From positions 1 through 7,298 of the IMG/VR virus record IMGVR_UViG_3300031760_001924: a stretch of 7,298 nucleotides of DNA, one strand, 5' to 3'. The stretch is from a virus. This document shows positions 3,043 to 4,235 of this stretch, in pieces. Under the pieces are notes generated by a model. It saw only the letters and a list, made by a program, of their open reading frames with translations. It had not been told where the DNA came from and did not search any database. Every line of letters begins with the position of its first letter. The stretch's first letter is position 1. The position numbers and the translations under genes are program-made.

Positions 3043-4235
3043 CACTCCCGGAAAGCAGCTGGGTGCGGTATATCAACCGGCTGAGCGCCATCAACAAAAC
3101 AGCGGCGAGGAAGTTTGAGGCATACCTGAACACGCATGATGTTATGAGCAAGAGCGGCCGGAAGGCTGCCCTGGACTATGCGGCGGCACTTGTGATGAAG
3201 TATGGAGAAGGCGCTGCGGCTGTTTCCTGCGAGATGTATGATGCAGTAGCGGCGGCCTCAGGAGCGGTCCTGCCGGCAGCGGAACCGGCTGCAGTTGCTT
3301 CCTATGGGGAAGTGGCAAAGACTATCAACGGCATCATGAAGACTTCGCAGAATGCCTCGTATATTGCATCAGGCGTTGAGCGGCTTGTAAAGCAGGCCGG
3401 AGCAGATACTACGCTGATGAATGCCAGAAGGGACGGCGCGGAGTTTGCCTGGGTGCCGCACGGTGACACCTGTTCTTTCTGCGTTATGCTCGCCTCTAAC
3501 GGCTGGCAGACCGCTTCCAAGAAAACCATTAAAGGCGACCATGCCGAACATATCCACGCAAACTGTGACTGCACCTTCGCAATTCGCTTCGACGGCAAAA
3601 GCAATGTTGAAGGCTATGATCCTGACAAGTATAGAGAGATTTACGACAACGCTGAAGGAGACACCTGGCAGGAAAAGCTTAACTCCATGCGCCGGGATGA
3701 ATATGCTGCCAACGCTGACAAGATCCGGGCACAGAAGCGGGAAGCGTATGAGAGAAGAAACCAGTTGAAGAGGAAACCAGAAGCATTGTCGCGGGTATAT
3801 GTTAATAACTCGGAGCAATTGTATAAGAATTTGCAGAATGTTACTCCAATTAGAAGATTTGAGGATGTTGCAATTCATGGTGTCCCGGGGCAGGCTCTGG
3901 TTGAGTATGAAACTACAAGCGGAATCATAAAACAGTATAATCCAGCTGAGCTTGCCGACATGATAAGAGAGAACCCAGATTATCATGGGGGGAATGTCCG
4001 TTTGCTTTCCTGTGGCGCAGGAGCGGAAGAGACTGGTTTTGCACAAGCGCTGTCAAATGAGCTCGGTAAACGAGTAATGGCACCAACAGAGACTCTCTGG
4101 GTTGCAGAAAATGGAGAAATGTTTGTATCAGATAGTGAAGTGCTTGCACAATTGTGGTACAATGGTGGCGCAATTGATCATGGAGTAAAGCAGACAGGGT
4201 ATTGGAAAGTATACAAACCTAAGAATCATGAATAA
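3039..4235 (+). CDS. MuF/SPP1 gp7-like minor head (head morphogenesis) protein fused to an extra C-terminal domain
   Basis: The gene is translationally coupled to the portal gene (ATGA). The core contains AEFAWVPHGDTCSFCVMLASNGW...DHAEHIHANCDCTFAIRF, with Cys145/148 at nt 3471-3482 and Cys176/178 at 3564-3572. From memory, this CxxC...HxxCxC variant occurs in MuF-like minor capsid proteins. The position after the portal gene is canonical. The 398-aa length exceeds what the MuF core needs. Confidence 0.85.
   Translation: MTLPESSWVRYINRLSAINKTAARKFEAYLNTHDVMSKSGRKAALDYAAALVMKYGEGAAAVSCEMYDAVAAASGAVLPAAEPAAVASYGEVAKTINGIMKTSQNASYIASGVERLVKQAGADTTLMNARRDGAEFAWVPHGDTCSFCVMLASNGWQTASKKTIKGDHAEHIHANCDCTFAIRFDGKSNVEGYDPDKYREIYDNAEGDTWQEKLNSMRRDEYAANADKIRAQKREAYERRNQLKRKPEALSRVYVNNSEQLYKNLQNVTPIRRFEDVAIHGVPGQALVEYETTSGIIKQYNPAELADMIRENPDYHGGNVRLLSCGAGAEETGFAQALSNELGKRVMAPTETLWVAENGEMFVSDSEVLAQLWYNGGAIDHGVKQTGYWKVYKPKNHE
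3786..4232 (+). other. C-terminal extension domain of the MuF-like protein; candidate clan CD (CPD/caspase-like) cysteine peptidase or toxin module
   Basis: It follows a charged helical linker (aa ~205-249). A hydrophobic strand ends in His-Gly (EDVAIHG, His280 at nt 3876-3878). Forty-five residues later a hydrophobic strand ends in Cys (NVRLLSCGAG, Cys325 at nt 4011-4013). The GC content is clearly lower than in the N-terminal part of the same ORF. Confidence 0.5.
4155..4163 (+). promoter_or_regulatory. possible extended -10 promoter element (TGgTACAAT) inside the 3' end of the MuF-fusion gene
   Basis: TG-N-TACAAT sits at 4155-4163, about 90 nt upstream of the GTG start at 4254. No convincing -35 hexamer lies at 17-nt spacing, so this rests on sequence match alone. 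Confidence 0.2.

Follow-up and report, generated by a model that had tools for sequence, protein, structure and literature searches.

A predicted caspase-like protease domain and a small partner gene as a putative exchangeable cassette on a phage minor head protein

Results

Organization of the locus

The DNA analysed in this work, hereafter the window, spans 7,298 nucleotides, positions 1 to 7,298 of the IMG/VR virus record IMGVR_UViG_3300031760_001924. It carries on the + strand the packaging and head module of a tailed phage, in which the genes follow one another in the order large terminase (TerL), SPP1-type portal, fusion gene, partner open reading frame (ORF), scaffold and capsid-sized ORF (Table 1). 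The fusion gene and the partner ORF are the subject of this report. The former encodes a VG15/MuF-like minor head protein extended by a C-terminal domain (CTD), in which an initial annotation, made from the sequence alone, had recognized features of clan CD cysteine peptidases. The latter encodes a small protein, which is here regarded as a candidate inhibitor of the CTD.

Table 1. Coordinates of the features of the window
Feature	Position	Strand	Basis or remark
VG15/MuF-like head protein fused to CTD, 398 aa	3039-4235	+	
VG15/MuF-like minor head protein domain, aa 1-205	3039-3653	+	directly 3' of SPP1-type portal gene
Charged helical linker, aa 206-240	3654-3758	+	conserved N-terminal part, outside the cassette
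CTD part of the cassette, predicted clan CD peptidase domain, aa ~241-398	3759-4235	+	GC content, homologues, structural model, PDB neighbours, DUF4347 and Peptidase_C80 matches
CTD core, aa 250-398	3786-4235	+	
His280 codon CAT, predicted catalytic His, then Gly281	3876-3878	+	conservation, alignment with legumain NHG
Cys325 codon TGT, predicted catalytic nucleophile	4011-4013	+	conservation, alignment with legumain EACESG
Ribosome-binding site GGAGGTGA	4242-4249	+	four bases 5' of partner GTG start, read from sequence
Partner gene (102-aa product), candidate inhibitor or immunity protein for the CTD	4254-4562	+	uncharacterised family
Large terminase (TerL)	180-1619	+	
SPP1-type portal	1627-3042	+	Pfam PF05133
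DUF4355 scaffold protein	5042-5650	+	
Capsid-sized ORF	5665-6510	+	

The CTD as a predicted clan CD peptidase

The initial annotation had pointed to a His-Gly pair and, 45 residues downstream, to a Cys, each preceded by a hydrophobic strand. Both codons are where it had read them, His280 in the context FEDVAIHGVP and Cys325 in the context NVRLLSCGAG, with 45 residues between them. The strands match those of the AlphaFold2 (AF2) model, in which strand 30-37 has the His at its C-terminal end, and the Cys comes two residues past the next core strand, 75-79. Homologues of the CTD are numerous: an exhaustive HMMER search retrieved 1365 cluster representatives (50% identity) at E <= 1e-3, and 342 at E <= 1e-10. 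Conservation was monitored in an alignment of 193 domain copies, derived from the best 150 proteins of the search. The His is retained at 169 of the 170 occupied positions and the Cys at 186 of 192, as had been anticipated for catalytic residues, while position 281 is Gly in 130 copies and Ala in 30. Other near-invariant positions are Ala306, Gly317, Gly328, Ala335, Ala348-Pro349, Gly359, Gly387 and Trp389. Among 70 full-length phage-type proteins, the His and the Cys are the sole invariant columns. Both residues have been lost in one copy (3257-3397) of the giant protein P0069. The conservation of the His/Cys pair is far beyond chance.

The AF2 model of the CTD, obtained from a 32-sequence alignment, scored 92 for the predicted local distance difference test (pLDDT) and 0.86 for the predicted TM-score (pTM). 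A Foldseek search of the PDB with this model returned, at ranks 1 to 6, the autoprocessing cysteine protease domains (CPDs) of the MARTX toxins of V. cholerae and V. vulnificus, and at ranks 7 to 12 the CPD of TcdB; the type III-E Craspase CHAT protease (rank 13) and the CPD of TcdA came next. The best match has E 2e-3, probability 1.0 and a query-normalised TM-score (TMq) of 0.42. Judging from the model, the likeness to CPDs is remote yet wholly one-sided.

Sequence profiles lead to the same clan by a different path. Sub-threshold matches to Peptidase_C80 (PF11713) were found in 5 of 32 family members (best E 1.3e-3), and DUF4347 (PF14252) was matched by 3 of 32 (best E 2.8e-7). CTD relatives carrying multiple copies of the domain exceed the gathering score of DUF4347; the CTD of the window and the 70 phage-type proteins are not matched by the DUF4347 model, and the window CTD has no match to PF11713 at E<=1, which keeps it out of the curated C80 family. 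The link between CTD and DUF4347 hence appears to be one of transitive homology, and not of direct membership. A profile including the multi-copy relatives could be aligned to human legumain (E ~0.25), with His-Gly falling on NHG and Cys on EACESG, which we take to be the motifs of the catalytic His148 and Cys189. A word-index protein search with the CTD found one relative only, and the CTD alignment profile gave only a chance match against PDB sequences.

On sequence and model grounds, we assign the CTD to the clan CD (caspase-like) peptidases, as a divergent domain for which DUF4347 is the closest curated sequence family, and the C80 CPDs are the closest solved structures. The notion that aa 250-398 adopt an enzymatic, and not a structural, fold was borne out as a prediction by both structure and profile searches. 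The closer assignment to C80 was correct in part: the predicted fold is that of clan CD and C80 CPDs take the first 12 places among its PDB neighbours, but membership in the Pfam C80 family does not hold, and DUF4347 is nearer.

The CTD and the partner gene as an exchangeable cassette

Relatives of the N-terminal domain in IMG/VR amount to 309, and 80 IMG/VR loci (L020-L099), 51-77% identical to the window in this region, were compared. In 45 of the 80 the protein is short (~250 aa) and has no extension; the ORF which follows mostly belongs to two recurrent clusters, also holding longer downstream genes. The remaining 35 proteins carry extensions of 98-235 aa, which form 14 clusters, none of them related to another or to the CTD of the window. 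Altogether, at least 15 C-terminal clusters reside on 36 long forms, next to 45 short forms, in 81 loci including the window, and nearly every C-terminal cluster is accompanied by its own cluster of small downstream ORFs. Toxin domains already known were recognised in three of the alternative C-termini, namely ADPrib_exo_Tox (an ADP-ribosyltransferase), a PBECR2/3 RNase and CdiA_C. The initial annotation had reasoned that an extension constantly found in head proteins would be structural, and that toxin/immunity pairs would appear as alternative C-termini, with alternative downstream ORFs, on a conserved N-terminus. The extension is not constant, and the second arrangement is the one observed.

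Pfam annotation of the C-terminal part is missing in 7 of 10 cluster representatives scanned. The other cassettes found on the VG15-type head protein, at least 14, represent a considerable stock of candidate toxin/immunity pairs that are still uncharacterised.

Identity to the closest relative, L020, drops from 80-90% to ~20% at about aa 240, which sets the junction of the cassette there, near nt 3759. The charged linker noticed by the initial annotation upstream of the CTD is present (EKLNSMRRDEYAANADKIRAQKREAYERRNQLKRK, at about aa 211-245), and belongs to the conserved part of the protein, because identity to L020 stays high up to about aa 240. The GC content of the CTD (0.433) and of the partner ORF (0.434) is nearly the same, while every flanking segment ranges from 0.52 to 0.59. 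The best explanation of these sequence data is that nt ~3759-4562 are a horizontally exchanged two-gene cassette residing on a VG15 minor head protein.

Since most of the relatives lack the extension, and the related locus L008 has an S78 prohead protease of its own, the extension is plausibly dispensable for head assembly. PHROG labels on the N-terminal domain had made the CTD a candidate for the prohead maturation protease. The candidate was rejected: the CTD is missing in most related phages, a separate S78 protease is found in L008, and a scaffold gene is present in its stead in the window.

The partner gene

The partner ORF is preceded by a strong ribosome-binding site and has 54 homologues. 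A partner homologue lies directly 3' of the CTD in 13 of 13 distinct loci, in which CTD identity is as low as 37%; the loci were collected via four CTD sub-families, plus three reached through the partner itself. In the 78 locus pairs, CTD identity is correlated to partner identity (r = 0.61), and far less to the identity of the N-terminus (r = 0.16). The AF2 model of the partner has pLDDT 95. Foldseek found no neighbour for it in the PDB (best E 1.4), a search of curated families with the partner gave no match, and no significant Pfam match was obtained for 53 family members.

Stand-alone copies of the partner gene, of five kinds, reside in loci of 4-8 kb in which the CTD is absent in any frame. 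One is found beside a lipoprotein gene (L001), one on an integrative element, others on Streptomyces and Ralstonia plasmids. In L101-L103 the partner (4001-4318) comes directly after genes for the R subunit of a type I restriction enzyme (HsdR) and a DUF1016/YhcG nuclease, on a mobilisable element which encodes a relaxase and NikA/MobC, and which is found in at least 24 contigs. In the plasmid pRLN2 of Rhizobium leguminosarum (L104, 5657-6761), what remains of a CTD is a C-terminal piece (E 5e-10); the partner comes next, and after it a gene annotated as encoding an immunity protein of the MafI family. This distribution is what would be expected, from the sequences, of an immunity gene and not of a chaperone.

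A TIR-domain gene lies nearby in pRLN2, and the region is a cluster of immunity genes on a proteobacterial plasmid. The 258-aa protein encoded 5' of the orphan partner in L001 was considered as a hidden CTD and discarded, being a lipoprotein with no profile match.

Occurrence of the CTD

In each of the 135 single-copy proteins, no more than 18 residues separate the end of the CTD from the C-terminus. The N-terminal families were counted in 70 single-copy proteins of 300-900 aa: the N-terminal part is Phage_Mu_F in 29, Phage_min_cap2 (PF06152) in 18, VG15 in 11 and a portal domain in 3. By sequence, one and the same CTD has been joined to head proteins of several kinds, and since VG15, PF04233 and PF06152 proteins all carry it, the three plausibly fill equivalent roles.

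The second context in which the domain occurs is represented by giant proteins of 1-7 thousand residues carrying 2-7 full copies of it, among which P0059, P0068, P0069, P0075, P0092 and P0172. In P0059, five caspase-like copies are spaced ~450 residues from each other. Two of the three giant proteins scanned start with a WXG100-like region, and further domains detected in the set are PI3/PI4-kinase-like, TcdA/TcdB-type glycosyltransferase and ADP-ribosyltransferase domains.

Two cassettes made of CTD and partner are located at chromosomal sites which lack a head module. The one in L005 (5797-6793) adjoins a peptidase S51 gene, the one in L007 (6064-6757), in which the first ~25 residues of the domain are missing, MatE and glutamine synthetase type III genes, all housekeeping functions. 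A tblastn search of 50,697 GenBank phage records with two CTD sub-families and the partner gave no match, and the family seems so far confined to uncultivated phages and metagenome-assembled genomes (MAGs).

The head domain and the remainder of the window

The N-terminal part of the fusion protein had been described as a complete MuF-type head domain, extending to about aa 205. The domain is indeed complete, as aa 5-205 are a full-length match to the Pfam family VG15 (PF25310; E 2.7e-48), but a Pfam search found no match to Phage_Mu_F (PF04233) in this region. The PHROGs matching the VG15 domain (phrog_193, 13257, 1752 and 595) are labelled 'head maturation protease'. The label looks like an inherited misnomer, and a protease function of this domain finds no support in the present analysis.

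The closest genomic kin of the cassette are MAGs of Lachnospiraceae and Oscillospiraceae, one of them ruminal. A megablast search of phages with the whole window gave a single match of 200 nt (76%).

A 480-nt gap (4563-5041) separates the partner gene from the scaffold gene. Its minus strand features a near-consensus promoter-like site, TTGATA-17-TATAAT with TG (4994->4966), a 14-bp hairpin (4597->4566), and a 92-aa ORF (4893->4615) with no Pfam match. RNA transcribed from this strand (4960->4566) would fold with z = -4.9 relative to shuffled sequences, and no Rfam match was found in the gap. The region may host an antisense moron or a non-coding RNA within the head operon.

Discussion

The reading which we favour, with a probability of about 0.6, is that the virion delivers the CTD as a clan CD protease effector, and the small ORF encodes its cognate inhibitor or immunity protein. 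According to this reading, the MuF-like domain would incorporate the fusion protein into the capsid, by analogy with proteins of the SPP1 gp7 type, and the protein would exit with the DNA. In the newly infected cell the protease would act on host or competitor proteins, possibly after severing itself from the head-protein anchor in the manner of CPDs. The small protein would bind and block the protease both in the producing cell and in cells hosting stand-alone copies of the partner gene. Catalysis, packaging, ejection, inhibition and targets are all features that we infer. The framework on which they are placed is established by computation, and consists of fold and homology, conservation of the dyad, location in a slot used by toxins, cassette boundaries, the obligate pairing of two co-diverging genes, and orphan partners.

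Several points weigh against this reading. Single-sequence searches of Pfam, NCBIfam, PHROGs and PDB sequences with the CTD alone gave no match, the CPDs are distant structural matches (TMq 0.42, E ~1e-3), and the alignment to legumain is weak at E ~0.25. Homology of the head domain to MuF is hypothetical, and hhalign of VG15-type against Phage_Mu_F-type N-termini gave E 0.16. For packaging and ejection the model is SPP1 gp7. The closest solved relatives are autoprocessing domains, not effectors, and the internal CTD arrays of giant WXG100-type toxins point to a processing role. As to the partner, neither Pfam nor PDB fold searches reveal a likeness to known inhibitors or to the Imm36 family, and its location in a late head operon makes it hard to see how it could be expressed to protect a lysogen.

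Some of these points could be explained by hypothesizing that the CTD is solely an autoprotease of the CPD type, cutting the upstream linker, for example near Leu250/Ser251, either at head maturation or after ejection, in order to set free or activate the MuF-like domain, with the small ORF silencing the protease until then. We consider this improbable, in spite of being the best placed of the alternatives. The CPDs of TcdA/TcdB and MARTX cleave N-terminal to themselves, at sites of the type Leu followed by Ser, Gly or Ala. These autoprocessing domains are the closest solved structures, and among 135 copies of the CTD, 57 have Ala and 40 have Leu at position 250, and position 251 is mostly Ser (67) or Gly (15), which resembles such sites; in the giant-protein copies, in contrast, the putative P1 residue is Gly. 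The occurrence of the domain, 3-7 times, in giant WXG100-headed proteins, beside kinase, glycosyltransferase and ADP-ribosyltransferase domains, is an arrangement that Zhang 2012 reads as one of releasing peptidases. In the head proteins, however, there is nothing to release 3' of the CTD, and the MuF-like part needs no processing, given that 45 of 80 related head proteins have no extension. Moreover, the CTD occupies the exact slot in which sister proteins carry bona fide toxin domains, and a dedicated partner which co-diverges with the CTD, and is found as an orphan near restriction and immunity genes, is hard to explain for a protease acting in cis. Self-processing and an effector role are compatible, as the enzyme could cut itself free and then act in trans.

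The favoured reading takes the partner as an inhibitor. Strict linkage and co-divergence show that the two genes are functionally coupled, but not the sign of the coupling, and the small ORF might alternatively encode a chaperone, a packaging adaptor, or an allosteric activator playing the role that inositol hexakisphosphate (InsP6) has for CPDs. To our knowledge, bacteria lack InsP6, and another activator is therefore plausible; the partner, in addition, is unlike known inhibitors and immunity families. Yet client-less copies of five kinds have been identified, and while an orphan antidote is useful, an orphan activator is not obviously so. The pRLN2 copy is located beside a MafI immunity gene, and only a truncated CTD remnant adjoins it. 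Most sister cassettes, finally, share the layout of toxin plus small ORF which is typical of immunity pairs (Jamet 2017, PMC5576092). We regard a role other than inhibition as still less probable than autoprocessing alone. A purely structural CTD (decoration, portal plug, or binding of DNA ends), in which the His and Cys would be incidental, could be suggested by the lack of a direct match of the window sequence to curated families, but is strongly disfavoured and very improbable, because the two residues are near-invariant in the aligned copies and lost together in one, the confident model has clan CD peptidases as best neighbours, and the domain is absent from most related head proteins, replaced by toxin domains in others, and found on unrelated backbones as well as in stand-alone chromosomal cassettes.

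How the predicted protease compares with known systems deserves attention. The CTD has in common with the CPDs (MEROPS C80/PF11713) of MARTX toxins and TcdA/TcdB the His-then-Cys order, the hydrophobic strand before each residue, and a spacing of ~45 residues; the catalytic pair of TcdB is presumably His653/Cys698. CPDs sit, as the CTD plausibly does, in multi-domain delivered toxins. The CTD, however, is smaller (~150 aa, versus ~200-250 aa for CPDs; target-normalised TM-score 0.33), and is the C-terminal-most domain, associated with a dedicated partner gene, which CPDs do not have. Being 50-100 aa shorter, with about one third of the target covered by the TM-score, the model suggests that the CTD lacks the InsP6-binding flap. 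DUF4347, the nearest curated family, is an uncharacterised domain encountered in large proteins, secreted or repetitive, and in PA0256, a putative type VI secretion system (T6SS) effector discussed as a candidate T6SS toxin (PMC8262886). Unlike the CTD, DUF4347 has been described neither in a phage or MuF setting nor with a partner gene.

Caspase-like toxin domains were already described in 2012. The Tox-Caspase domain of Zhang 2012 (PMC3482391) has a caspase-like fold and an H,C dyad, and is interpreted as a releasing peptidase if internal, and as a toxin if C-terminal-most. Arrays of it occur in Streptomyces WXG toxins, some copies lacking the catalytic residues; its phyletic range includes Caudovirales, and its immunity family is Imm36. 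The CTD belongs among these domains, and its giant relatives match the Tox-Caspase architecture, down to the copy without dyad. The delivery routes reported for Tox-Caspase are the type II (T2SS), type VI and type VII (T7SS) secretion systems and PVC (Photorhabdus virulence cassettes); MuF is not listed, its row in the same work holding only papain-like peptidases, and the CTD partner is not Imm36. According to Jamet 2017, the cargos of MuF proteins are nucleases, metallopeptidases, ADP-ribosyltransferases and RelA-like enzymes. The MuF toxins described there share with the cassette a head-module gene coming after the portal, a conserved N-terminus, a swappable toxin C-terminus and a small downstream ORF, and similarly have Firmicutes of gut and rumen as hosts. 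The N-terminal family differs, as it is VG15 in the protein of the window and PF04233 in the MuF toxins of Jamet. Iyer 2017 found four peptidase superfamilies in polyvalent proteins, none caspase-like. In agreement with what had been supposed at first, no CPD-like cargo on MuF proteins is described in these three studies, or in the wider literature searched.

Both the MuF polymorphic toxin class and the caspase-like toxin and processing superfamily are thus known. What is new is their combination, along with the extent of a phage-borne clade that curated models do not capture, the partner family, and the presence of stand-alone partners beside defence and immunity genes. A bolder scenario may be drawn, to which we assign a low probability. 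The capsid-delivered protease would be an anti-defence or host-takeover effector, cleaving specific host proteins, for instance those of the immune system, as soon as infection begins, and the partner would represent a new family of proteinaceous clan CD inhibitors, which bacterial cells and mobile elements would have captured in stand-alone form as a counter-measure and placed near restriction-modification and immunity genes. The outcome would be a three-layer arms race involving phages of Firmicutes, T7SS toxins of Actinobacteria and plasmids of Proteobacteria.

Toxin cargos on MuF-type head proteins are frequent among the phages of gut and rumen Firmicutes. The cassette described in this work adds to them a class of cargo not listed so far, a predicted cysteine protease of the caspase/CPD-like type, and the partner is a confidently folded candidate for a new protease inhibitor. 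The location of stand-alone partners near type I restriction and MafI genes suggests that cells may use them as a defence against an injected enzyme. If the protease is active, the pair would be a tractable system to analyze the roles of proteins injected by phages, the regulation of CPD-like enzymes without InsP6, and which host proteins it pays to destroy at the time of DNA entry.

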